In this document: positions 9,926 to 21,694 of the stretch, in pieces
Layout of the letters: each line of letters begins with the position of its first letter
How positions within the stretch are numbered: the stretch's first letter is position 1
Source of the DNA: Porphyrobacter sp.
GTDB taxonomy: Bacteria; Pseudomonadota; Alphaproteobacteria; Sphingomonadales; Sphingomonadaceae
Length of the DNA stretch: 64,000 nt
Assembly: GCA_027531395.1 (NCBI GenBank)
Contig: JAPZRO010000001.1
Coordinates: 544,377-608,376 of the forward strand
Reading direction: 5' to 3'
Translations under genes and position numbers: made by a program
Notes under the pieces: generated by a model
Told to the model about the DNA's origin: nothing
Database searches by the model: none
Seen by the model: only the letters and a program-made list of their open reading frames with translations

Positions 9926-10465
9926 GTGACGCAGATAAAGACCCTTCCCGGCCTGTGGCTGATCTCCGACGCGCGCAACGACGCGGGGCTGGAGCGTGCG
10001 CTCGCCCGCCTGCCGCGCGGATCGGGTTTCATCTACCGCCACTATCACCTGCCCGATCCCGAGCGCTTCGCGCGGTTCCGCCAGCTGCGCCGCATCGCGC
10101 GGGCGCGGGGCCATACGATCCTCCTCGCCGATTCTGCCCTGACCGCACGCGAATGGGGGGCGGACGGGATCTACGGGAGCCCGCGCAGCCTCTATCCGCG
10201 CCGTGCCGGTCTGATCCACCTCGCCACCGCACACGACCTTGCCGAACTCGGCCTCGCCGCGCGGCTGGGGGCGGATGCGGCGCTGCTTTCGCCGGTCTTC
10301 CCGACCCGCACGCACCCCGGCGGCGCAGTGCTGGGGCCAGTGCGCTTCCGGCTGCTGGCGCGGCAGTCGCGGCTGCCGGTCATCGCGCTGGGCGGCATGA
10401 ACGCCCACCGCGCCCGGACGCTTGGCTGGCAAAGCTGGGCGGCGATCGACGGGCTGAGCCGGTGA
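9926..10465 (+). CDS. thiamine-phosphate synthase (ThiE)-like protein
   Basis: C-terminal 179 aa of track ORF 9137..10465 (LWLISDARND..., FIYRHY, LSPVFPT.THPG, VIALGGM). GTG 9926 is the first in-frame start upstream of the LWLISD block. It is divergent from yggS with only 21 bp between the starts. Confidence 0.7.
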   Translation: MTQIKTLPGLWLISDARNDAGLERALARLPRGSGFIYRHYHLPDPERFARFRQLRRIARARGHTILLADSALTAREWGADGIYGSPRSLYPRRAGLIHLATAHDLAELGLAARLGADAALLSPVFPTRTHPGGAVLGPVRFRLLARQSRLPVIALGGMNAHRARTLGWQSWAAIDGLSR

Positions 10466-10644
10466 ACGACCGCGACGATGACGAGCTTTACCGGCGCGCC
10501 TGCGAATATGTCGTGCGCGGCGGCAGTCCGCGCCTGTCGCATCTCATGATCCGCTTCAAGGTCGGCTATAATCAGGCCTCGCGCTGGGTCGAGCGGATGA
10601 TGGAGAACGGGATCCTCACCCCGCCCCGCGACAGCTTCCATTAG
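10462..10644 (+). CDS. stand-alone FtsK-gamma-like winged-helix mini-protein (60 aa)
   Basis: GTG 10462 overlaps the ThiE-like stop (GTGA). The product VNDRDDDELYRRACEYVVRGGSPRLSHLMIRFKVGYNQASRWVERMMENGILTPPRDSFH aligns by eye with the C-terminus of the adjacent FtsK (YRQACQIVFENQKASGSWLQRQMGVGYNTAAKWIERMEEDGFV). Good GC3. Confidence 0.55.
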   Translation: MNDRDDDELYRRACEYVVRGGSPRLSHLMIRFKVGYNQASRWVERMMENGILTPPRDSFH

Positions 10645-10718: not shown

Positions 10719-13151
10719 ATGGCCAGCCGCGCCGTTACGCCCAGAGGCCCTTCCGGCCGCAAGCCTGCCGTCAGCAAGTCCGATGCCGAATGGCGCGCGG
10801 GGCTGCGGCGAGGCCTCCGCCGCCTCGCGCAGATGACGGGGGCCGCGGCGCTGCTGGGGGCGATGGTGTTCCTCGCGCTCGCACTGGTAAGCTACACCCA
10901 GACCGACCCCAGCCCCTCGACCGCCGCCGATCCGGGCGAGGTCGCCAACTGGATGGGCGCTGCCGGCGCCTGGGTGGCCGACCGCGTGCTGCTGGTGTTC
11001 GGCCTGCCCGCCGCGCTGCTGCTGCCGCTGCTCTATGTCAGCGCGCGCAAGCTGTGGCGCGATGTCGAGAACGGCGACGAGGCGGAAACGACCCCCTGGT
11101 GGCTGCCCACCGGCCTGCTGCTGATCGCCATGACCCTGCTCGCTACCGTGCTCAGCCTCGCCTTCGAAGGGCCGGGCGGGACGCTGCCGGCACAGGCGGG
11201 CGGGCTTGCCGGCCTGCTCGGCGCGGGCGCGGTGCAGGCGCTCGCCGCGCGGATCGCGGGCGATGCGCAGGGCTGGGTGATCCTCGGCACGGCGCTGGCC
11301 TGCCTTGCGACCGGTGTCGGCCTTTTGACCCGTATCTTCGCGATCGACTGGCGGGTGCTGATGAGCCTGCCCGAATTTCTCGGTGGCGGGTCGCTCGCCG
11401 GACTGCTGCGCCGGCTTCCGCTGCCGGGCCGCAAGCGAGCGCCGGCCACCGCGCTGGCCTTTGCCGATGACGAGGACGAGGAAGCCCCCGCCCGCCCGCG
11501 CCGCGCCGCAAAGGGCGACGCCGCCCCCGTCACCATCGACGATCGCCCGCGCCGCGCGCCCGAAATCAGCGATCCCTCGGCCCCGCCGCGCCGCGCCGCC
11601 GCAGCCAAAACCGCCCAGCGCGACATGTTCGCGCCCTTCAACCTGCCGAGCCTCGATCTGCTGGCCGAGCCGCCGGTCGACAAGGCGCCCAAGCTCGACA
11701 AGATCGCGCTCGAACGCAACGCCCGCCTGCTCGAAAACGTGCTCGACGATTTCAACGTGAAGGGCGAAATCACCGCGGTGCGCACCGGGCCGGTGGTGAC
11801 GATGTACGAGCTCGAACCCGCGCCCGGCATCAAGGCCAGCCGCGTCGTCGGTCTGGCCGAGGATATCGCCCGCAACATGAGCGCGATCTCCGCACGCGTC
11901 TCGCCGATCCCGGGCCGCACGGTGATGGGCATCGAACTGCCCAACCAGGACCGCCAGATGGTGGCCCTGAAGGAACTCGCCGCCTGCGCCGCCTTTGCCG
12001 AATCCAAGGGCAACCTGCCGATCATCCTCGGCAAGGATATCGCAGGCGAACCGGTGATCGCCGATCTGGCCGCCATGCCGCACCTGCTGGTCGCCGGGAC
12101 CACCGGATCGGGCAAGTCCGTGGGCCTCAACGTCATTCTGCTGAGCCTGCTCTACCGCTTCACACCCTCCGAACTGCGCCTGATCCTGATCGATCCCAAG
12201 GTGCTCGAACTCAAGACCTATGACGACATACCGCACCTGCTCTCGCCGGTGGTGACCGAGCCGGCGAAGTCGGTGCGTGCGCTGAAGTGGGCGGTCGAGG
12301 AAATGGAGCGGCGCTACCGCATGATGAGCGCGATTTCCTCGCGCAACATCAACTCCTTCAACGAGAAGGTCTCCGCCGCAATCGCCAAGGGCAAACCCTT
12401 GGGCCGCCGGGTGCAGACCGGCTTCGACCCCGAAACCGGCGAGCAGCTGTTCGAGGAAGAACAGCTCGATTACCAGCCGCTGCCGCAAATCGTGCTGATC
12501 GTCGACGAACTCGCCGACCTGATGGTGACGGTCGGCAAGGAAATCGAAGTGCTGATCCAGCGCCTCAGCCAGAAGAGCCGCGCAGCGGGCATTCACCTCA
12601 TCATGGCGACACAGCGCCCCTCGGTGGACGTCATCACCGGCGTCATCAAGGCCAACCTGCCGACCCGCATCAGCTTCAAGGTGACCAGCCGGATCGACAG
12701 CCGCACCATCCTCGGCGAGCAGGGGGCGGAGCAGCTGCTGGGCAAGGGCGACATGCTCTACAAGCCCAACACCGGCGCGATGGTGCGCGTCCATGGCCCG
12801 TTCGTGTCCGACGAGGAAGTCGAGGCCGTGGCCGATTTCTGGCGCGGACAGGGCTCGCCCGAATATGTCGATGCCGTCACCGAGGAACCCGAGGACGGCT
12901 TCGGCGGCTTCGGCTTCGATGACGATCTCACCGCTTCCGACAACCCGGAAGAGCGCAAGTACCGGCAGGCCTGCCAGATCGTGTTCGAGAACCAGAAGGC
13001 GTCCGGTTCGTGGCTCCAGCGCCAGATGGGCGTGGGCTACAACACGGCGGCCAAATGGATCGAGCGGATGGAGGAGGACGGCTTCGTCGGCCCCGCCAAC
13101 CACGTCGGCCGCCGCGAGATCTACCGCGACAAGGACGGCAATCCGCTCTGA
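10719..13151 (+). CDS. ftsK: DNA translocase FtsK
   Basis: 810 aa. N-terminal TM helices, Pro/Ala-rich linker, motor domain with Walker A GTTGSGKS, and a C-terminal gamma domain. AGGAGA RBS. Confidence 0.95.
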   Translation: MASRAVTPRGPSGRKPAVSKSDAEWRAGLRRGLRRLAQMTGAAALLGAMVFLALALVSYTQTDPSPSTAADPGEVANWMGAAGAWVADRVLLVFGLPAALLLPLLYVSARKLWRDVENGDEAETTPWWLPTGLLLIAMTLLATVLSLAFEGPGGTLPAQAGGLAGLLGAGAVQALAARIAGDAQGWVILGTALACLATGVGLLTRIFAIDWRVLMSLPEFLGGGSLAGLLRRLPLPGRKRAPATALAFADDEDEEAPARPRRAAKGDAAPVTIDDRPRRAPEISDPSAPPRRAAAAKTAQRDMFAPFNLPSLDLLAEPPVDKAPKLDKIALERNARLLENVLDDFNVKGEITAVRTGPVVTMYELEPAPGIKASRVVGLAEDIARNMSAISARVSPIPGRTVMGIELPNQDRQMVALKELAACAAFAESKGNLPIILGKDIAGEPVIADLAAMPHLLVAGTTGSGKSVGLNVILLSLLYRFTPSELRLILIDPKVLELKTYDDIPHLLSPVVTEPAKSVRALKWAVEEMERRYRMMSAISSRNINSFNEKVSAAIAKGKPLGRRVQTGFDPETGEQLFEEEQLDYQPLPQIVLIVDELADLMVTVGKEIEVLIQRLSQKSRAAGIHLIMATQRPSVDVITGVIKANLPTRISFKVTSRIDSRTILGEQGAEQLLGKGDMLYKPNTGAMVRVHGPFVSDEEVEAVADFWRGQGSPEYVDAVTEEPEDGFGGFGFDDDLTASDNPEERKYRQACQIVFENQKASGSWLQRQMGVGYNTAAKWIERMEEDGFVGPANHVGRREIYRDKDGNPL

Positions 13152-13215: not shown

Positions 13216-13235
13216 GGTTATCGGTTACGGTTAGG
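13216..13235 (+). promoter_or_regulatory. triple GGTTA direct repeat in an AT-rich island upstream of the OMP/7TM/ATP-grasp operon
   Basis: GGTTAtcGGTTAcGGTTAgg lies inside the only AT-rich stretch (13195-13255) of the ftsK-OMP intergenic region, about 55-75 nt upstream of ATG 13290. Confidence 0.25.
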
Positions 13236-13289
13236 ATTTTCTAAACGGCCTCCCCGTAGGGCTGCGTAAGTCAACGGGGGGACATCTTC

Positions 13290-14204
13290 ATGCATATCAC
13301 CTTTCCAGCGCTCATCCGGACGCTGGCCATGCTCCTTGCAATCGTTTGTGCGTCGGGGGCGGCCGCGCAGGACAGTAGCTGGACGCTCCAGCCCGATGCC
13401 CGCATCGAGGTCCAGACGGTCAGCGCCCAGACCACCACGCGCGACGATGACCTGGTGGTTGACGGCGAGGCGATTTCGGTGCGCGGACAGGTCGGTGTGG
13501 CGCTCGAAAAGCGCGGCGTGCGGCTGCGCGTCGAGGCGGACCGGATCGAGGTGTTCCGGCTGGGTGACGGGCGTCCCGACATTGCCCGCGACCGCTTCAC
13601 CGCAACGCTCCAAACCGACATCGAGAAGGACTGGGAACTGCAACTGCAGGCCCGCCACTTCGACGATTATGTCTCGGTCGAGGCCGCCGATACCGACGAA
13701 TGGCAAGGCTCGGCCCGGCTGACATGGGAACCGCGCAACGAACACCGGGTGCGCGTGCAGGGCACCTGGCGGGAACGCGAATATGACGATGGCACGCCGA
13801 TCGAGACCACCGGCGAAGGCCCGCGCGTCGATGCCCAATACCGCCGCCGCTTCGGGGCCAATCACTTTCTCGCCTTCGACCTGCGCGCTGAGGAAATCCG
13901 CTCGGACGATGCCCGCCGCGGCTACGAGCGCCAGTCGGCCGGGGTCGCCTATACCAGGCCGGTCGCGCCCGATCTGCGCGTGCGCCCGGCGATCGAGGTG
14001 ATCCGCACCCGCTTCGACGGCCGGATCACCGCGGCAGGCGAACGCCGCCGCGACCGGCTGGTGGTACCCGAAGTCGAGCTGCTGTGGTGGCCCGGCAAGT
14101 GGCGCATCGAGGCCGAGGCCAAGTATATCTTCACCGGCAGCAACGAACCCGTGCGCGAGCGCGAGGGTTACCGGCTGACCCTGTCGCTGGGTTACGCCTT
14201 CTGA
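13290..14204 (+). CDS. predicted outer-membrane beta-barrel protein
   Basis: 304 aa. Signal peptide (LAMLLAIVCASGAAAQD), alternating amphipathic strands rich in R/E/D/W/Y, and C-terminal ...LTLSLGYAF typical of OMP termini. GGGGGGA RBS. No named family recognised. Confidence 0.6.
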   Translation: MHITFPALIRTLAMLLAIVCASGAAAQDSSWTLQPDARIEVQTVSAQTTTRDDDLVVDGEAISVRGQVGVALEKRGVRLRVEADRIEVFRLGDGRPDIARDRFTATLQTDIEKDWELQLQARHFDDYVSVEAADTDEWQGSARLTWEPRNEHRVRVQGTWREREYDDGTPIETTGEGPRVDAQYRRRFGANHFLAFDLRAEEIRSDDARRGYERQSAGVAYTRPVAPDLRVRPAIEVIRTRFDGRITAAGERRRDRLVVPEVELLWWPGKWRIEAEAKYIFTGSNEPVREREGYRLTLSLGYAF

Positions 14205-14205
14205 G

Positions 14206-15351
14206 ATGATCGCACGGGTTGCCCAGGTCTGGAGGCGGGCTACCCCGCAGGTACGGCGTCCTGTGTACGTCGGCCTGGCCGTCGGCTTCGTGCTGGCGGC
14301 GCTGGTTGCGCTTGGCGTGGCCAATACCGATGCCTTCTTCGTCCTGCCCTCCTCGCTCGACGGCGTCGCCACCTCGCAGGCGATCTGGGGGCTGAAGCCC
14401 TCCAACCTGCTGATGGTGCTGCCGCTGGGCGCGTTCCTGGTGGTGCTGGCGCGCAGTTTCGTCGGCCTCAAGGCCTTCGGCCTGTTCACCCCGATGCTGA
14501 TCGCGCTCGCCTTCCTTCAGATCGGCCCGATCATGGGGCCGGTGGTGCTGTGTTCCTCGGTCGCAGTCGGCATGATCGTCACGCCGAGCCTGCTCAAGCT
14601 GCGCATGACCCGCGTCGGCTTTCTCGGGGTGCTGATCTCGCTGATCGTGCTGGTGCTGGTGGCGCTGATGATGGTGCTCGATACCGAGCTTCAGGTCGAC
14701 GCCTTCCCTGTGATCGTCTGCGCGCTGGTGGTCGAGCGGTGGTGGAAGCAGGTCGGCAAGGACGGCGCCAAGCCGGCCGCCAAGATGGCGTTCAATACCT
14801 TTGTGCTGGCGGTGGTGATCGAGTTCGTGATGGTCTCGCACTTCGCGCTGGCGCTGATCGAATGGTCGCCGCTGCTGATGCCGGCCTTCACCGCGATCGC
14901 GATCGGCATTCTCGGCCGATACCGCGGACTGCGCCTGTCCGAAATTCACCGCTTCCTCCCGATATGGCTTGAGAGACGACGAAATGCCCGCAATCCGACA
15001 TCTGCTGAGGAGCCTCTGGAAGAGGACTTCGCCAGCGCCGAAATCCACGATACCGGCGGCGCCCACCCGCCGGCGTTCACCACGTGGATTATACGTAGTC
15101 GCGACGACCTCCCCTGGAAGCCCGTCATCGTCGGGCAGCGCAAGCCGTATCGCAAGCCCTACCGAAAGCCCCGCATCACCCGCACCGGCCCGATCAACGG
15201 TCGCGGCACCTGGCCCATCCTCTCGGTCGCGGACCTCTGGCCGCCGGACTGGAGCCGCGATGATGGAGATGGACGAGATTCTCGGCATCAACATGCGCAA
15301 CGCTCTGATCGCGAAATACAATCCCCGGCACGCTATCGAGCGCGCGCGTGA
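14206..15351 (+). CDS. 7TM membrane protein of the 7TM_transglut type, lacking the transglutaminase-like domain, with a ~130-aa charged C-terminal tail
   Basis: ATG sits 1 nt after the OMP stop. Blocks VGLKAFGLFTPMLIALAF and ILGRYRGLRLSE match the 7TM module that partners RimK-related ATP-grasp enzymes. The frame stays open and keeps high GC3 to about 15258, then overlaps the next gene to the stop at 15351. Confidence 0.75.
   Translation: MIARVAQVWRRATPQVRRPVYVGLAVGFVLAALVALGVANTDAFFVLPSSLDGVATSQAIWGLKPSNLLMVLPLGAFLVVLARSFVGLKAFGLFTPMLIALAFLQIGPIMGPVVLCSSVAVGMIVTPSLLKLRMTRVGFLGVLISLIVLVLVALMMVLDTELQVDAFPVIVCALVVERWWKQVGKDGAKPAAKMAFNTFVLAVVIEFVMVSHFALALIEWSPLLMPAFTAIAIGILGRYRGLRLSEIHRFLPIWLERRRNARNPTSAEEPLEEDFASAEIHDTGGAHPPAFTTWIIRSRDDLPWKPVIVGQRKPYRKPYRKPRITRTGPINGRGTWPILSVADLWPPDWSRDDGDGRDSRHQHAQRSDREIQSPARYRARA
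15139..15174 (+). repeat. in-frame 12-nt tandem repeat x3 encoding RKPY-RKPY-RKPR
   Basis: cgc aag ccg tat / cgc aag ccc tac / cga aag ccc cgc. The copies differ only at synonymous third positions, apart from the last codon. Confidence 0.9.
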
Positions 15352-16129
15352 CAAGGTCGCGGCCAAGCGCGCGCTCGAGGCGGCAGGGATCTCCTGCACC
15401 GGCACCGTCGCGGTTCTCGAGGACAACCAGCAGGTCGCCAATTTCAAGCCCTCCCGCGACATGCCCGATGCCTGGGCGATCAAACCCGCGCGGGGATCGC
15501 AGGGCGACGGCATCCTGCTCGCGGTCCGGCGCGAGGGGAACACCTGGTTCAAGGGATCGGGCACCCCGCTGCCCGAGGACGCGGTGATGCACCACATCCA
15601 GAAGGTCGTCGATGGCGGCTTCTCGGGCGATTCGGCGGCCGAGGACGCAGCGCTGATCGAGCCGCTGATCATCGCCGATCCGGCGCTTTCCCGCATCGTG
15701 CCGGAGGGCCTGCCGGACCTGCGCGTCATCAGCTTGCACTACACGCCCCTGATGGCGATGGTGCGCCTGCCCACCATCGAGAGCGACGGCAAGGCCAACC
15801 TCCACCAGCGCGCGATCGGGGCGGGGATCGATATGGAGACCGGCAAGATCACCCGCGCAGTGGTCAAGGGCACGCCGATCACCCATCACCCTGACACGGG
15901 CGTCAATCTGATCGGGTTCGAGATTCCGGGCTGGAAGCGGGTGCTGGAGCTGGCGTCGAAATGCGGGCCGGCGGTGGGCCTCGGCTATTGCGGGGCGGAC
16001 ATCGTGCTCGACGTCAACGATGGCCCGCTGGTGATCGAGGTCAATGCCCACCCGGGGATCGAGATCCAGAATATCTGCCAGGCCGGCCTCAGGGCGCGGA
16101 TCGCGGCGACGGGCGAGGATTTCCGCTAG
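15260..16129 (+). CDS. alpha-L-glutamate-ligase-related (RimK-related, sugar-transfer-associated) ATP-grasp protein
   Basis: MMEMDEILGINMRNALIAKYNPR..., AIKPARGSQGDGIL, MAMVRLPTIESDGKANLHQRAIGAGID, ITHHPDTG, GADIVLDVNDGPLVIEVNAHPG. Start set at ATG 15260, behind GGAG at 15251. The track start 14969 adds an S/P/R/T-rich, low-GC3 stretch. Confidence 0.85.
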   Translation: MMEMDEILGINMRNALIAKYNPRHAIERARDKVAAKRALEAAGISCTGTVAVLEDNQQVANFKPSRDMPDAWAIKPARGSQGDGILLAVRREGNTWFKGSGTPLPEDAVMHHIQKVVDGGFSGDSAAEDAALIEPLIIADPALSRIVPEGLPDLRVISLHYTPLMAMVRLPTIESDGKANLHQRAIGAGIDMETGKITRAVVKGTPITHHPDTGVNLIGFEIPGWKRVLELASKCGPAVGLGYCGADIVLDVNDGPLVIEVNAHPGIEIQNICQAGLRARIAATGEDFR

Positions 16130-16284: not shown

Positions 16285-18654
16285 ATGCTCCGCACCACTT
16301 TGTCGCGCGTTTCACCGATCGCGCTTGCCGCCGTTCTTGCCGCCGCTCCGCAGGCCGCCTTCGCGCAGGACGCCGAAGCCCCGGCCGAGGACGAGCGTTC
16401 CGGCAACCAGATCATCGTCACCGCGCAGAAGATCGAGCAGCGCGCGCAGGACGTGCCGATCACCATCTCGGCCGTGAGCGGCGAGCAGATCCGCGAACTG
16501 GGCGTCAATGATCTCGACGAGCTGTCGAACTACATCCCCGGCCTCAACATCCAGGAGCAGAGCGCCAACAACCCCGGCGTGGTGATCCGCGGGATTACCT
16601 CGGACTCGGGCTCGGCGCAGCAGGGGCCGCGGGTCACGCTCTATTACAACGGCGTCGACATCTCGCGCTCGCGCGGGTCCTATCAGGCGATCTACGATCT
16701 CGAGCGGGTCGAGGTGATCAAGGGCCCGCAGGCAACCCTGTTCGGCACCGCCAGCGCCGTGGGCGCGATCAGCCTCGTCTCGGCCCGCCCGCGCGAGGGC
16801 TTCTCCGGCCAGATTACCGGCGGCTACGGCAATTTCGAACAGACCCTGCTGTCGGGCTTCCTCAATGCCGGCTCCGACGTGCTGGCCGGGCGCATTGCCT
16901 TCGAATGGCGCGCCCGTGACGGCTATATCGAAAACCTCTCGCCCAATCAGGACGAGGAGCTTTACGCGCAGGACCAGCTCGGGGTGCGCGCCTCGCTGCG
17001 CTACACGCCGACCAGCGACATCACCGTCGATCTGATCGGCACCTACGACCAGCAGCGCAACGGCGGCACGCCCTTCGTCTCGGGCCGCTTCCCGGGCTTT
17101 CTGGGCGCGCCGGGCGGAGCGGCCAATGCTTTCGGCCCCGCCAATCTCGGCGGCAATCCGGGCGCGGCAGCGGTGCTGGGCGACGACCAGCTCGGCCTCA
17201 ACCGCGAGGTCTATGACCTGAACCTGACGCTCGAATATGCCTTCGCCGACGATTGGACCTTCACCACCGTCAACGGCTATCGCGAATTCGACAGCGCCGA
17301 GGTGTTCGATGCCGACGGCTCGGCCGCGCCCTTCCTCGAATTCGCCGAGATCGCGGACGGCTGGCAGGTCAGCCACGAAGGCCGCTTCAGCTATGCCGGC
17401 AGCAGCCTGCGGGCGAGCGCGGGGTGGAACGTCTTCATCGAGGACGGCCGCCAGAACGTGCCCTTCGCGACCGAGGAAGGCACCTTCCTCCAGTGCCTCA
17501 GCTCGCTGTTCGGCGCGCCGCTGATCCCGGGCATTCCCTGCGTTGCGCCCAATGGCAGTGTGCCGGCCGCCGGCGTGACCGCGATCGCCACCGGCGGGGC
17601 CTTCCAGGCGATCCCCTATGCCTCGGTGTTCGAGAACCAGGGCCGCAACGAGGCCTATTCGGTGTTCGCCGACGCCACCTGGCTGGCGAGCGACGCCTTC
17701 GAACTGACGGCGGGCGTGCGGTTCCTGTGGGAGTATCGCAAGTCCGGCTTTTTCGCCAACGTGCCCAACTCGGTGCTTAGCCGTGCGCCGCTGATCCCCG
17801 GACAGATCGACACCGGCGGGCGCACCTTCACCGCCGATGAAAGCTTCACCGCCGCCCTGCCGCGCGTCAACGCGCTCTACCGCATCAGCGACGATGTGAA
17901 CGTCTTCGCCACCGTGTCCAAGGGCCGCCGCTCGCCGGTGGTGCAGGTCAATGCCGCGCGCCGCGCCGGTGTGGTCGAGCCCAACGTGGTCGATGTCGCG
18001 CAGGAAATCGTGTGGAACTACGAAGGCGGGGTGAAGCTCGCGAGCGGCCCGGTGTCGGGCTCGCTCGGGGTCTATTACCAGGTCTACGACAACTTCCAGG
18101 TCTCGGTTGCCCAGCTCGACGCCAACGGCAACCCGACCGGCGCCTTCGTCACCGCCAGCGCGGGCAAGGCCTCGAACCTCGGGGTCGAAGCCGAAGTGTC
18201 GATCGAAGTGGCCGACTGGCTGCGGGTGTTCGGCAATGTCGGCTTCATCGACGGCGGGATCGACAAGGACGGGGCCTTCTCACCCGCCTTCTCTGGTGCC
18301 CGCTTCCGGCTCCAGCCCGAATGGCAGGGCGCGGCTGGCTTCACCATCGACAAGGATCTGGGCGGCGGCATGCGCCTGTTCGCCACGCCGAGCGTGACCT
18401 ATCGCAGCAAGATCTTCTTCGAGGTGCCCAACAACCCGCTGATTGCGCAGGATGCGGTGACGCTGGTCAACGCGCGCGCGGGGGTAAGCTTTGCCGATGA
18501 CCGCTACGAGATCGCGGGCTTCATCCGCAACGCCACGGGCGAGGACTACCTGCTCGATGCGGGCAACACCGGCGGGGCCTTCACCATCCCCACCTTCATC
18601 CCGGCCGAACCGCGCTTCTACGGCATCCAGCTGACCGCGCGCTTCGGCAACTGA
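16285..18654 (+). CDS. TonB-dependent receptor
   Basis: Signal peptide (IALAAVLAAAPQAAFAQD), plug motifs (IIVTAQK, DVPITISAV, RVEVIKGPQATLFG) and a long barrel. Start trimmed to ATG 16285, behind an AGGGAAG RBS. Confidence 0.9.
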   Translation: MLRTTLSRVSPIALAAVLAAAPQAAFAQDAEAPAEDERSGNQIIVTAQKIEQRAQDVPITISAVSGEQIRELGVNDLDELSNYIPGLNIQEQSANNPGVVIRGITSDSGSAQQGPRVTLYYNGVDISRSRGSYQAIYDLERVEVIKGPQATLFGTASAVGAISLVSARPREGFSGQITGGYGNFEQTLLSGFLNAGSDVLAGRIAFEWRARDGYIENLSPNQDEELYAQDQLGVRASLRYTPTSDITVDLIGTYDQQRNGGTPFVSGRFPGFLGAPGGAANAFGPANLGGNPGAAAVLGDDQLGLNREVYDLNLTLEYAFADDWTFTTVNGYREFDSAEVFDADGSAAPFLEFAEIADGWQVSHEGRFSYAGSSLRASAGWNVFIEDGRQNVPFATEEGTFLQCLSSLFGAPLIPGIPCVAPNGSVPAAGVTAIATGGAFQAIPYASVFENQGRNEAYSVFADATWLASDAFELTAGVRFLWEYRKSGFFANVPNSVLSRAPLIPGQIDTGGRTFTADESFTAALPRVNALYRISDDVNVFATVSKGRRSPVVQVNAARRAGVVEPNVVDVAQEIVWNYEGGVKLASGPVSGSLGVYYQVYDNFQVSVAQLDANGNPTGAFVTASAGKASNLGVEAEVSIEVADWLRVFGNVGFIDGGIDKDGAFSPAFSGARFRLQPEWQGAAGFTIDKDLGGGMRLFATPSVTYRSKIFFEVPNNPLIAQDAVTLVNARAGVSFADDRYEIAGFIRNATGEDYLLDAGNTGGAFTIPTFIPAEPRFYGIQLTARFGN

Positions 18655-18661
18655 AGGCGGG

Positions 18662-19219
18662 TTAGCGGCTCATGATCGGGGGCGGGAGGCGCAGGTCTTC
18701 CGCCCCTTCGTTTTGCGCGTCGCGCTCGGCGATTTCCTCAGGGGTGAGCGGGCGGAAGCGGATGGCGATGGGCGTGAAGCTGCCGTCCTCGCGCTGGCGG
18801 ATCGTCACGATCCCGCGCTGGTCGGATTTCTGGAGCTGTTGCTGCAATTCCGTGGCCCGGTCTTGTCCGATATAGAGCCGCCCGCGCATCAGCGCGTCCC
18901 AGCCATAGACCCCGCTGCCTTGCGCGCGGACCGGATGGGTGCAGGGCTGGCCTGTCGGCAGCACGGTGACCGCTGCCAGCTGCGGCGCCTCGCCCGAAAG
19001 GCATAGCGCCTCGGGGGGAACATCGCGGAATTCGTCGATGCCCGGCCAGCCATAGGTGAACTCGACATAGTGCCCGCGCAGGAAGTCGCGCGGATCGAAC
19101 CCCTCGATCGGTACCTCCCATTCGGTGCCGGTGCGGTAATGGCTGTCGCTCTGCACCCACAGACCGGCGAGACCGGCAAGCGGGAGGATGACAGCGAGCA
19201 GACGGGCGGCGCGCATCAT
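18662..19219 (-). CDS. GDYXXLXY-domain protein
   Basis: 185 aa. N-terminal anchor (MMRAARLLAVILPLAGLAGLW) and DPRDFLRGHYVEFTY, which corresponds to the family GDYXXLXY block. The ATG overlaps the upstream stop (ATGA). Confidence 0.8.
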   Translation of the reverse strand: MMRAARLLAVILPLAGLAGLWVQSDSHYRTGTEWEVPIEGFDPRDFLRGHYVEFTYGWPGIDEFRDVPPEALCLSGEAPQLAAVTVLPTGQPCTHPVRAQGSGVYGWDALMRGRLYIGQDRATELQQQLQKSDQRGIVTIRQREDGSFTPIAIRFRPLTPEEIAERDAQNEGAEDLRLPPPIMSR

Positions 19220-20364
19220 GCCTCGGGCTCCTCGCGCGGGGCAAAGCGCTTCGACACCCGCACCGCGCCCCATGCCACGCCGAGGATCATCACCCCGGCA
19301 AGGATCAACCCGAAGCCGCTCATCAGCAGGTCACCCGCCAGCTCGAAGCTGAGGATGATGAGGCGCAGCGCAATCACGCCGACGGCGAGCTGGAACACGC
19401 CCCGCCAGTGCGCGGCAAGCGCAGCGGCGGCGATACCGACCCACAGCGCCATGAACAGCAGCGCGGGCGGGAGCGTCACATTGTCGGCGGCATAGGCCAA
19501 CGGCGGCACCAGCCCCGCTCCGGCCATGATCGCGCCTGCCATGCGCCCCGAGGTGCCCGGCCGCGCCAGCACCACGCCGAGCCCCGCCGCCAGCGTCACC
19601 GCGCCGCTCACGGCCATGCTCGCCCATTCCTGCGTCAGCCCGCGCTCCCCGAACCCGCCGACCGCCGCGACTGCGGTCGCAAAGGAAGCGCCGGCGACCG
19701 CATAGGCGAGCGCCAGCTGCTCCAGCCGCCGCCAGAAATCGGGGCGCGCGCTGCGGGCGCGCAGGGCTGCGGCGAAGGGTGCGAAGATCACCGGCAGGGC
19801 GGTGACCAGCGCCAGCCACAGCAACAGCGCCATGTCCGGCGATCCGGTGCCGTAGCCGGTCATGTCGGTGGCATATTCCCACGCCGTCCACACCGCCCCG
19901 CCCAGCACCGCGAGCGCGGCGGGCCAGCTGCGGCCCGTCAGCAGCAGCAGCGGCGCGAACAGCACCAGCCACACGCCCAGAGGCTGCCACAGCGGCGAGG
20001 AGGTCTGGTAGACTTGGCCCAGATGCCCGAAGAAGGTGAGGCCGAGCGCGGCGGTGACGAACACCAGCGCCTCGACCGCCCAGGGGGACGTCGCCGCCAG
20101 CCGTTCCTCGCGCAGGAACAGCACCGCCAGCGCGCCCGCGATCAATGCAAGGTGCACGCCGAGGCGCAATTGCCCGGGAATATCCTCCCAGTTGGCAGCA
20201 ATGACCGAGACCAGGCCCAACCCGATCGCAAGGGCCCCGATACCGAAAACCGCCCACAGCGCGAGCGGTCGCGCGTGGGCGGCTTCGTAGGCCAGCAGCC
20301 GGTCACGCGTTTCCGCGTCGATCAGGCCGGCGTCATGCCATGTGGCGATCTTGCGGGCGCTCAT
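19216..20364 (-). CDS. DUF2157-type polytopic membrane protein
   Basis: The N-terminal cytoplasmic helix IATWHDAGLIDAETRDRLLAYEAA is followed by about 11 hydrophobic helices. Start could be 20364, 20373 or 20400. Translationally coupled to the GDYXXLXY gene. Confidence 0.72.
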   Translation of the reverse strand: MSARKIATWHDAGLIDAETRDRLLAYEAAHARPLALWAVFGIGALAIGLGLVSVIAANWEDIPGQLRLGVHLALIAGALAVLFLREERLAATSPWAVEALVFVTAALGLTFFGHLGQVYQTSSPLWQPLGVWLVLFAPLLLLTGRSWPAALAVLGGAVWTAWEYATDMTGYGTGSPDMALLLWLALVTALPVIFAPFAAALRARSARPDFWRRLEQLALAYAVAGASFATAVAAVGGFGERGLTQEWASMAVSGAVTLAAGLGVVLARPGTSGRMAGAIMAGAGLVPPLAYAADNVTLPPALLFMALWVGIAAAALAAHWRGVFQLAVGVIALRLIILSFELAGDLLMSGFGLILAGVMILGVAWGAVRVSKRFAPREEPEA

Positions 20365-20406
20365 GCGCGGCATGCTACGCCGCGAAACCGCCCGCTGCAA
20401 TCACAC

Positions 20407-21480
20407 TTACTTGGCGGCGAGTTCCTCGCGGGTCAGCACGGTCTGCTCGCGCACCTTGGCGGCGTTGGCGGCCATCGCCTCCTGCGGCATCGCGACCATC
20501 CCGATCTTGGCCAGCGGGCCATCCTTGCCCCAGCTCTTGACCCACTCGTCAAGGAATGCCGACAGGCCCGGGATCGCGCGCATATGTTCCTTCTTTACAT
20601 AGACATAAAGCGGGCGCGCACCGGGATAGGCGAAGCTCGCGATGTTCTCGTAGGTGGGCGCGACGCTGTTCATCGGCAGGCCCTGCACCTTGTCGAGGTT
20701 CTCTTCGAGATAGGAATAGCCGAAGATGCCGACCGCCTGCGGATTGGCCTCGATCTTCTGCACGATCAGGTTGTCCTGCTCGCCCTGATCGACATAGGCG
20801 CCATCGTCGCGCACTTCGGTGCACAGCTGCTTGTACTTGTTCTCGTCGCTGTCCTTCAGCGCCTTCATCGCCGGATCGGCCTTGCACCCGACTTCGAGGA
20901 TCAGCTCCTTGAGCGCGTCGCGCGTGCCCGAGGTGCTCGGCGGGCCGTAGACGAGGATCGGCTGGGCCGGCAGGGCCGGATCGACATCCTTCCAGGTCTT
21001 GGCGGTCTGCGGCTTGCCATAGGGCTGCGCGGCGAGCGCCTTGTAGATCGTCTCGGGCGAGAGGTTGAGCATGATCCCGCCCTTGGCCGACGCGAAGGCG
21101 ATGCCGTCGAGGCCGACCTGCAGTTCGATGATCTCGTCGACCTTGTTGGCCTTGCAGCCGTCAAATTCGCTGTCCTTCATCCGGCGCGAGGCGTTGACCA
21201 TGTCAGGGGTGTTGGGGCCGAGGCCCTTGCAGAACAGCTGGATGCCGTTGCCGGTGCCGGTGGATTCGATCAGCGGCGAGCGGAAGTCGGTGTTCGAGCG
21301 CGCGAAGTTCTCGGCCACCAGCTTGGCGAAGGGATAGACGGTGGAGGAGCCGACCGCGTGCACCGAGTTGCGGGCGCCGCCGCTGCTGCTGCCGCCGGAG
21401 CTGTCGCAGGCGGAAAGGGCAAGCGCAGCCAGCGCGAGGGTGGCGGTGGTGCGGGCGAGAGTGGCAAATGAAGTGGTCAT
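20407..21480 (-). CDS. pstS: PstS-family phosphate-binding lipoprotein (orphan, no pstCAB nearby)
   Basis: Lipobox LALSAC, then VHAVGSSTVYPFAKLVAENF, ESTGTGNGIQLFC and a periplasmic binding fold. Start trimmed to ATG 21480. Confidence 0.85.
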   Translation of the reverse strand: MTTSFATLARTTATLALAALALSACDSSGGSSSGGARNSVHAVGSSTVYPFAKLVAENFARSNTDFRSPLIESTGTGNGIQLFCKGLGPNTPDMVNASRRMKDSEFDGCKANKVDEIIELQVGLDGIAFASAKGGIMLNLSPETIYKALAAQPYGKPQTAKTWKDVDPALPAQPILVYGPPSTSGTRDALKELILEVGCKADPAMKALKDSDENKYKQLCTEVRDDGAYVDQGEQDNLIVQKIEANPQAVGIFGYSYLEENLDKVQGLPMNSVAPTYENIASFAYPGARPLYVYVKKEHMRAIPGLSAFLDEWVKSWGKDGPLAKIGMVAMPQEAMAANAAKVREQTVLTREELAAK

Positions 21481-21525
21481 TAAGAGTCCCCGAGGTTGTC
21501 CGATGCCGCGCGCTAGTGCCCTTCC

Positions 21526-21545
21526 ATGACAAGCATATGACAAGC
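21526..21545 (-). promoter_or_regulatory. Pho box (PhoB site) upstream of pstS
   Basis: On the minus strand it reads GCTTGTCATATGCTTGTCAT: two TTGTCAT cores exactly 11 bp apart, 46-65 nt upstream of ATG 21480. The E. coli consensus is CTGTCATAWAWCTGTCAY. Confidence 0.65.
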
Positions 21546-21694
21546 GCGCAAAGCAATCGCGGCGACCTTTCGGGGTTTCTTGGCGCGACCCCGCCCGATG
21601 CAAGCCAAGTCGATGAGATTACGCGATATTCCCAAGGCAACGCTGATAACGCGCTTAACAGCATCGTAAGGCCTTCGGTGCTAGGCCCGCGCGC

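Follow-up and report, generated by a model that had tools for sequence, protein, structure and literature searches.

In the stretch of 64,000 nucleotides (nt) from Porphyrobacter sp. analyzed here (assembly GCA_027531395.1, contig JAPZRO010000001.1; hereafter the window, with positions numbered within the stretch), three consecutive genes encode a predicted secreted outer-membrane beta-barrel protein (gene 1), a membrane protein carrying the seven-transmembrane (7TM) module 7TM_transglut (gene 2), and an ATP-grasp amidoligase (gene 3). We propose, with a probability of roughly 0.45, that this trio constitutes an RloBC-like envelope amidoligase module joined to an outer-membrane channel of its own and conserved as an operon in the Erythrobacteraceae. 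The arrangement given in the initial annotation of this DNA—three genes on the same strand, the first two separated by 1 nt (TGA at 14202–14204, g at 14205, ATG at 14206–14208) and the last two overlapping by 92 nt (ATG at 15260, gene-2 stop at 15349–15351)—was recovered exactly in the sequence, and all the peptide motifs quoted there were found in the translations.

Data from the literature indicate that the RloABC operon, for which genetic and structural information is available, occurs in gammaproteobacteria, Pseudomonas aeruginosa among them (Lormand et al., mBio 2025, PMC12239564). With that characterization, and with NCBIfam now naming RloB, the pairing of a 7TM protein and a ligase can no longer be regarded as a computational prediction only, as had initially been stated. 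The secreted RloA proteases of P. aeruginosa cleave glutamate-rich peptides with a preference for poly-Glu; the loss of RloA is lethal in low-salt medium, which lethality is suppressed by deletion of either rloB or rloC; and both RloB and RloC count in stress tolerance, antibiotic tolerance, and biofilm formation, the authors leaving the mechanism open (PMC12239564). We read that suppression to mean that RloC and RloB jointly make something whose processing by RloA is required and presumably takes place outside the cytoplasm.

The product of gene 3 matches the Pfam model ATPgrasp_ST (PF14397) with 210 bits (E = 5.3e-62) over profile positions 2–276 of 278, above the gathering cut-off of 31.4, and the NCBIfam model TIGR02291 (alpha-L-glutamate ligase-like, RloC-type equivalog) with 256.6 bits over profile positions 8–288 of 317, under the cut-off of 314.2. 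By these profile scores the protein is related to TIGR02291, but falls outside the curated equivalog, and its earlier placement in the ATPgrasp_ST/RimK-related family is thus borne out. The RimK model of Pfam (PF08443) covers residues 230–269 of gene 3 only, a segment of 40 residues containing the C-terminal Mg2+ site, and no Rimk_N pre-ATP-grasp domain was found by Pfam, so that the protein does not qualify as a RimK; the true RimK encoded at one of the related loci (L074) matches both the Rimk_N and the RimK domains in full. Gene 3 nevertheless shares with RimK, the poly-alpha-L-glutamate ligase of ribosomal protein S6 whose retropepsin-like partner is RimB, the ATP-grasp core with the same Lys and Asp/Glu/Asn Mg2+ motifs, since it aligns to the RimK structures 5zct and 4iwx over the ATP-binding Lys segment (IKPARGSQGDGILLA) and over the Asp/Glu/Asn Mg2+ triad of GADIV...EVNAHPG. 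No variation at K75, D247, E260, and N262 was seen in distant trios, at an identity of only 46–47%. Unlike RimK, the gene-3 ligase is partnered with membrane proteins, and no substrate of the ribosomal-protein S6 type is implied. Taken as a sequence, gene 3 reads as a relative of RloC and not as a RimK: an ATP-grasp amidoligase, probably active, with its ATP/Mg2+ site intact. The ATG at 15260 is preceded by GGAG 6 nt on its 5' side; public gene callers place the start at 15293 (278 amino acids, aa), and the family-profile alignment favors 15260–15269 instead.

Gene 2, for its part, does carry the 7TM module that had been attributed to it: the match to 7TM_transglut (PF14402) scores 91 bits (E = 1.1e-25) between aa 68–252 and profile positions 58–246 of 248, above the cut-off of 25 bits. 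The match to the NCBIfam RloB model NF052267, at 57.3 bits, is confined to the C-terminal part of that model (positions 314–502 of 508) and stays under the cut-off of 900; likewise, gene 2 is 29% identical to aa 314–500 of the Legionella RloB. As had been noted, the transglutaminase-like domain is missing, there being no match to the inactive transglutaminase domain PF14400 in gene 2, whereas the Legionella RloB matches both PF14400 and the 7TM domain; a loop of about 25 residues, following a positively charged N-terminus and the anchor helix, stands where RloB has some 230 periplasmic residues that include the transglutaminase-like domain. A PDB sequence search with gene 2 gave no match. The AlphaFold2 model of this protein is poor, with a predicted local distance difference test (pLDDT) of 50.6, and was used for helix positions only; those helices fit an arrangement of 1 + 7 membrane helices, and the chain beyond aa 262 is unstructured in the same model. 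The 1 + 7 helices and the positive-inside residues would place the C-terminal tail of gene 2 in the cytoplasm, where the ligase is also expected. The motifs of the gene-2 core are invariant across both of the trio clades described below.

A tblastn search of plasmid records provided three informative cases for comparison. Plasmid 5 of Legionella adelaidensis bears the canonical operon, composed of a Zn_protease/retropepsin of 152 aa, a Transglut_i_TM + 7TM protein of 508 aa, and an ATPgrasp_ST protein of 314 aa (L089), and an Aeromonas caviae record has the same arrangement, unannotated (L088). The third case, plasmid CP007061 of Halobacterium sp. DL1 (L090, 4176–5930), contains a single open reading frame (ORF) of 584 aa in which PF14402 (aa 51–243) and PF14397 (aa 286–557) are joined, so that the 7TM module and the ligase would act as one machine, in the manner of a Rosetta-stone fusion. 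That ORF is absent from the PLSDB gene table, which table is incomplete, and is followed by a 100-aa membrane-like ORF (L090, 5906–6208). Both the fusion and the window pair consist of a transglutaminase-less 7TM protein—anchor helix, short loop, 7TM module—followed by the same family of ligase, gene 3 being 39% identical to the ligase part of the fusion; they differ in that two proteins in the window correspond to one polypeptide in Halobacterium, the gene-2 tail sitting at the place of the fusion linker, and in that no barrel gene was seen beside the fusion, either as an ORF or as an annotated gene, in the stretch that was inspected, the host being an archaeon and as such lacking an outer membrane. 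The transglutaminase-less form is, as a consequence, not confined to the Erythrobacteraceae: the word stripped-down, which had been applied to the window architecture, remains a fair description, but one that has to accommodate the occurrence of the same reduced form fused to its ligase in Halobacterium.

Compared with RloABC itself, the window trio has an ATPgrasp_ST ligase encoded directly after a 7TM_transglut protein, at identities of 38% for the ligase (to the Legionella RloC) and of the 29% given above for the 7TM module, and presumably agrees with it in chemistry and in cytoplasm-to-envelope logic. In contrast, its gene 2 has the short loop in place of PF14400 and a cytoplasmic tail that RloB does not have, its operon has an outer-membrane barrel gene in front, and a secreted retropepsin of the RloA kind (PF05618 plus signal peptide) is found neither in the operon nor elsewhere in the 64-kb window. 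By its sequence, then, the trio would work like RloBC but misses three features that define RloABC: a transglutaminase domain, a secreted protease encoded in the operon, and scores reaching the TIGR02291 and NF052267 cut-offs. In the literature consulted we found no report of the transglutaminase-less 7TM form, of its fusion to the ligase, or of a linked barrel.

The survey of gene neighborhoods suggested in the initial annotation revealed an extensive synteny. Scanning genomes with the 7TM alignment gave 80 species-level loci, which by their record titles are all from the Erythrobacteraceae (Erythrobacter, Porphyrobacter, Altererythrobacter, Qipengyuania, Aurantiacibacter, Alteraurantiacibacter, and Alteriqipengyuania); the ligase gene follows the 7TM gene directly in every one of the 80, and the barrel gene precedes it, making the trio contiguous, in 78, the exceptions being a contig end and locus L015. 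The distance from the gene-1 stop to the gene-2 start is 1 nt in most loci. A metagenome scan seeded from a distant pair added 45 loci, 41 with room for the trio, and in all 41 the trio was present in the same order. Part of these loci form a second, paralogous clade (L005, L006, L091–L117), whose 7TM protein is short (253–257 aa) and tail-less and whose proteins are 36–48% identical to those of the window; its named members are Erythrobacter or Porphyrobacter, according to cluster names that are only partly informative. Since the trio is kept in two paralogous clades and both paralogues occur in one Erythrobacter metagenome-assembled genome (MAG; locus tags NBV68_13040 and NBV68_09880), the arrangement has been maintained through duplication and deep divergence. 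Among the strains that carry the trio are Erythrobacter sanguineus DSM 11032, E. donghaensis DSM 16220, and E. colymbi JCM 18338.

The three genes lie on the same strand with the 1-nt gap and the overlap, their junctions are conserved, and no terminator-like site was detected within them; on this sequence evidence they probably form an operon of their own in the Erythrobacteraceae. An 18-bp palindromic motif, GGTTAGGATTTTCTAAAC, with one occurrence in the window against 0.06 expected, lies upstream of gene 1; allowing up to 3 mismatches, 64 of the 80 loci have it in the 200 nt that precede gene 1, irrespective of which gene lies upstream, and degenerate copies are visible in several of the remaining ones. 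The extra matches mostly represent this one site as it appears on the other strand, thus establishing that the motif is palindromic. It looks like a candidate operator for a dimeric regulator that would mark the trio as a unit of its own. Simple scans detected neither a sigma-70-like promoter nor an intrinsic terminator, including within the operon.

That the barrel might be functionally unrelated and merely co-transcribed, so that the system would comprise genes 2 and 3 alone, is an explanation to which we give little credence. It could draw on the more distant members of the barrel family that occur without 7TM or ligase genes, as with P0276 (24–26% identity), on the L015 MAG, which has lost most of gene 1 and keeps genes 2 and 3, and on the faster evolution of the barrel (48–90% identity) relative to gene 3 (63–96%). 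Nevertheless, the 1-nt junction of the long-tail clade, or an 11-nt overlap of the called barrel and 7TM genes in L005 and L006, has been kept along with the gene order in two paralogous clades and more than 115 loci while the flanks changed, a chance linkage not being expected to outlast a duplication and a divergence to about 35% identity; and the operator-like site is conserved upstream of gene 1 and not of gene 2.

The absence of the retropepsin partner, also stated initially, stands for the window, in which phmmer and tblastn found no homologue of the Legionella RloA or of RimB among the ORFs, and in whose likely coding ORFs the D[TS]G[AS] motif was missing except in the long ORF of a TonB-dependent receptor. 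As a statement about the family it has to be qualified: in nine loci of an Aurantiacibacter-type clade, and in L135 from metagenomes, the trio is immediately preceded by a rimB-like retropepsin gene (PF05618, no signal peptide being evident) and a genuine rimK (Rimk_N + RimK), in that order; in L083 the same pair is near the trio. Two glutamate-ligase-type systems are in this manner found side by side in that clade; neither rimB nor rimK is in the window.

The long-tail clade, to which the window belongs, is distinguished by the variable extension of gene 2 that is missing from the short clade and from RloB. In 56 related loci gene 2 ends in NAW[VI]IRxxEDV-stop, a second copy of the tail motif, the stop being TGA in 46 of them; the codons of this C-terminus vary synonymously with the amino acids conserved, which pattern indicates that the segment is translated and under selection. 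The relatives' stop is located 43–97 nt before gene 3 in most loci and 121–315 nt before it in three. In the small clade of the window, TGG occupies the stop position of those relatives; two members keep WVIRSVEDV-W..., while the window reads TWPILSVADL-W..., and a separate read-through of 170–200 nt has taken place in the Aurantiacibacter-type clade. The TGG at that position makes the 92-nt overlap a derived condition that says nothing about mechanism: most likely it is an accident resulting from a lineage-specific TGA-to-TGG stop loss, and not a design feature, and the extension is probably non-functional as a protein. The coding signal agrees in its course with the gene limits: third-position GC tracks the gene-1 frame and then the gene-2 frame at about 0.9 until about 14900, is lower (0.57–0.82) over the gene-2 tail (14900–15260), and from 15260 onward is 0.85–1.0 in the gene-3 frame as that of the gene-2 frame goes down to 0.38; within the overlap, a constrained coding signal is seen for the gene-3 frame only. 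That genes 2 and 3 were a frameshifted fusion was rejected in view of the preservation of frames and stops across many assemblies and of the identical protein on 12 contigs. In one MAG locus with genes 1 and 3 present (L018, 6001–6540) the gene-2 frame stops after 179 codons, instead of the usual 345–410 of the long-tail clade, and may be a pseudogene or a sequencing error of the assembly.

We also considered whether the ...EDV carboxylate at the end of gene 2 could be the substrate of the ligase, in the way that RimK glutamylates S6. This candidate was discarded as the core mechanism because the window clade reads through that end, a tail is lacking in RloB and throughout the short clade, and it is precisely there that the haloarchaeal protein continues into its ligase; a free ...EDV carboxylate cannot, for those reasons, be essential to the core system. 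The coordinates of all these features are collected in Table 1.

Table 1. Features of the trio and of its surroundings (window positions, unless a locus is named).
Feature	Position	Strand	Description
Gene 1	13290–14204	+	304 aa, ORF table; secreted outer-membrane beta-barrel protein (predicted)
Gene 2	14206–15351	+	381 aa, ORF table; 7TM_transglut inner-membrane protein
Gene 3	15260–16129 (ORF opens 14969)	+	289 aa from ATG 15260; cytoplasmic ATP-grasp amidoligase
Gene-2 core	14206–14991 (aa 1–262)	+	anchor helix aa 20–39, loop of ~25 residues, 7TM_transglut aa 68–252, amphipathic helix LSEIHRFLPIWLERRRNAR
Gene-2 tail	14992–15237 (aa 263–344)	+	variable, probably disordered; two copies of W-[VI]-I-x-S-x-x-D-[LV]
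Tail motif, copy 1	15082–15111	+	TWIIRSRDDL; also conserved in relatives as W[VI]IxSxxD[LF]
Tail motif, copy 2	15208–15237	+	TWPILSVADL, decayed
Gene-2 read-through extension	15238–15351 (aa 345–381)	+	37 codons; TGG 15238–15240 at the relatives' stop position
Gene-3 motifs	15479–15505; 15788–15808; 15992–16012; 16034–16057	+	IKPARGSQG; GKANLHQ; GADIVLD; IEVNAHPG
Operator-like palindrome	13229–13246	.	18 bp, GGTTAG-N6-CTAAAC; 44 nt upstream of the gene-1 ATG
rimB-rimK + trio, Aurantiacibacter-type clade	L074 (3547–4934), L068, L069, L072, L078–L081, L084		found by the Legionella protease probe

The identification of gene 1 as a signal-peptide beta-barrel was sustained by structure prediction. 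The protein has a signal peptide of about 27 residues (13290–13370; AAA|QD) without a lipobox, and ends in ...GYAF, with a C-terminal aromatic residue; the AlphaFold2 model, built with 25 homologues (pLDDT 79.7; predicted template modeling score 0.70), consists of the signal helix (aa 4–25) and then antiparallel strands that fit a 14-strand barrel with short loops. Those characteristics—signal peptide, even-strand barrel, terminal aromatic residue—predict an outer-membrane beta-barrel protein. Gene 1 reached no Pfam family at threshold (the best were Porin_4 and DUF7840, both with E = 0.015, and DUF481, with E = 0.08) and no NCBIfam model, the cut-offs of EpsL, BBP2_2, DUF481, and SlipAM included; nor did a PDB sequence search with the gene-1 profile produce a match. 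The family comprises 345 homologues in 90% clusters, of about 290–313 aa among the matches listed, or 77 clusters at 50% identity, its full-length members having about 280–330 aa and usually terminating in Phe; a search with the profile of its distant relatives, moreover, recovered at least seven proteins, which yielded two distant trios. Among the distant members, 8 of 19 match OMP_b-brl, 7 of 19 BBP2_2, 5 of 19 EpsL (up to 3.8e-07), and 3 of 19 SlipAM. Judging from the model, gene 1 stands for a protein family that is new but has a fold already known.

The best Foldseek matches of gene 1 in the PDB are the 14-strand porins OmpG (E = 8e-10, template modeling score 0.61–0.70) and CymA, within a range of E from 8e-10 to 4e-07; the sequence identity to these folds is 9–12%, and the loops of gene 1 are much shorter than theirs. 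OmpG and CymA being uptake porins, and the operon standing among nutrient-acquisition genes (TonB-dependent receptors, a PstS-like binding protein), the whole could alternatively operate inward, with the barrel as a porin that admits a solute resembling a peptide or an amino acid, the 7TM protein as the importer in the inner membrane, and the ligase trapping or processing that solute in the cytoplasm. We consider this explanation quite improbable: the Pseudomonas product needs a periplasmic protease, and the relief of its toxicity by the loss of RloB or RloC agrees with an outward flux; a 7TM module fused to an ATP-consuming ligase is typical of a synthase and not of a permease; and the genes flanking the trio are not conserved.

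The EpsL matches invite another comparison. AlgE is a barrel for the export or assembly of a polymer, alginate, and EpsL belongs in NCBIfam to XrtB/PEP-CTERM polysaccharide loci. Like AlgE and EpsL, the window barrel is an outer-membrane protein encoded with cytoplasmic and inner-membrane machinery that would make an anionic polymer; unlike them, it is predicted to have 14 strands and not 18, scores below the respective models, and has no polysaccharide genes nearby. The same matches would also suit a modification of the envelope in place of an export, in which the ligase and the 7TM protein add an amino acid or a short peptide to a carboxylate of a lipid-linked, peptidoglycan, or glycolipid molecule (for example, the uronic-acid glycosphingolipids of the Sphingomonadales), the barrel being an insertion or assembly factor, or a receptor, for the modified molecule. 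In line with such a function, the Pfam name of the ligase family refers to it as sugar-transfer associated; the distant barrel members match, in addition to SlipAM, EpsL and outer-membrane proteins associated with PEP-CTERM polysaccharides; and a Shewanella mutant in an inactive-transglutaminase/7TM protein, which protein we take as an RloB homologue, overproduces membrane vesicles. The rlo mutants of Pseudomonas, furthermore, exhibit cell-shape defects and a sensitivity to cell-wall antibiotics, for which peptidoglycan defects were proposed, in the Discussion of that work, as one possible cause (PMC12239564). Against these indications, the core pair also occurs in the Halobacterium sp. DL1 plasmid record, of archaeal taxonomy, and in gammaproteobacteria, so that the acceptor cannot be one specific to outer membranes containing sphingolipids; no glycosyltransferase or polysaccharide genes accompany the trio in the window; and the poly-Glu preference of RloA suits a peptide product better. 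We therefore regard a modification of this kind as unlikely, though by no means far-fetched.

The sequences support well the family assignments, the catalytic residues, the predicted barrel, the fusion, and the co-conservation, while the chemistry, translocation by the 7TM module, the transport direction, and the function of the tail belong to the proposal. The interpretation that we favor, an RloBC-like module with a channel of its own, can be put in terms of the following steps. The gene-3 ligase would be docked on the cytoplasmic face of gene 2, with the motifs of the gene-2 tail as a possible tether in the long-tail clade, and would there use ATP to form amide bonds. To judge from RimK, and from RloA as a glutamate-specific protease acting on the Pseudomonas pathway, the product is most likely a peptide, or a peptide tag, that is anionic and rich in alpha-glutamate. 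It would then be handed across the inner membrane by the 7TM module, and the barrel, with its apparently arginine-rich lumen, would pass it through the outer membrane or hold it there. In such a scheme, disposal or display of the product would be accomplished by export where the gammaproteobacteria trim it with a periplasmic retropepsin. As to the lumen, a crude count by strand parity gave 28 Arg/Lys versus 19 Asp/Glu on the inner side, and the conserved R153, R163, and R214 face the lumen in the same crude strand assignment. Export and a glutamate-containing product are further suggested by the EpsL matches of the distant barrel members and by the rimB-rimK pair that adjoins the trio in one clade; reasoning by analogy, the product is probably exported and is probably an anionic peptide.

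Several circumstances weigh on the other side. For no member of the ATPgrasp_ST/RloC family has a substrate or a product been established, and the assignment of glutamate comes from homology (24–38% identity) together with genetics carried out in another bacterial class. The 7TM module is not known to transport anything, and the gene-2 model is the poor one mentioned above (pLDDT 50.6). The charge of the lumen was estimated from strand parity and not from coordinates, and the mature gene-1 protein has an overall net charge of –7. In the window itself, the gene-2 tail has lost its stop and the second motif has decayed, for which reason the tail cannot be essential. Finally, gene 1 in the MAG locus L015 (5851–5999) retains only its signal peptide, fused to the final 14 codons (...REREGYRLTVSLGYAF), with genes 2 and 3 intact, which remnant may mean either that the barrel is dispensable or that the assembly is faulty. 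A bolder version of the proposal would have the trio constitute a complete trans-envelope pathway for the synthesis and export of a ribosome-independent anionic peptide, such as poly-alpha-glutamate, with a tethered ATP-grasp polymerase, a 7TM translocon, and an arginine-lined 14-strand barrel; this version we judge doubtful, and rather unlikely in the form just stated.

With respect to other functions, PADLOC returned no matches for the three proteins, on which account an anti-phage defense system was rejected, and an Rfam search gave sub-threshold chance matches only.

The neighborhood of the trio varies. Some loci have ftsK directly before the trio; a gene for a TonB-dependent receptor is found on the upstream side in some and on the downstream side in others; and many loci have neither. 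In the window, a 60-aa ORF at 10462–10644 (+), present also in public gene calls, corresponds to the FtsK gamma domain alone (the winged-helix domain that reads the FtsK-orienting polar sequences, KOPS), and the full-length ftsK (10719–13151) comes just after. The TonB-dependent receptor is located downstream of the trio here (16285–18654, +) and between ftsK and the trio in many relatives, from which change of sides it follows that the trio moves as a block. Downstream of the receptor, at 18662–20400 (–), genes for a GDYXXLXY-domain protein and a DUF2157 membrane protein lie end to end with a 4-nt overlap in the public calls, and many of the more closely related loci also have the GDYXXLXY gene in the vicinity of the trio. 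Phosphate-related genes occur within a few kb of both types of trio—a PstS-like PBP_like_2 gene at 20407–21603 (–) in the window; PhoB-like, PhoU, and PstB genes in L005 (5001–7231)—which proximity may be coincidental.

As to the significance of these results, the variant supplies three independent clues. The core pair can do without the transglutaminase-like domain and without the protease, and the existence of the 7TM module and the ligase as one polypeptide indicates that the two act as a complex. The tie between the pair and a barrel of its own in one bacterial family suggests that the product either gets as far as the outer membrane or passes through it. The trio thus offers, in culturable strains, a simpler system for finding the product of RloB and RloC; and, should the barrel be an exporter, it would represent a new family of outer-membrane proteins with a testable cargo. 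If the poly-alpha-glutamate pathway were true, it would amount to a new kind of Gram-negative secretion route and would identify both the product and the direction of the RloB/RloC family. The finding overturns nothing; it gives a concrete lead on what RloB and RloC make and on where that product goes.

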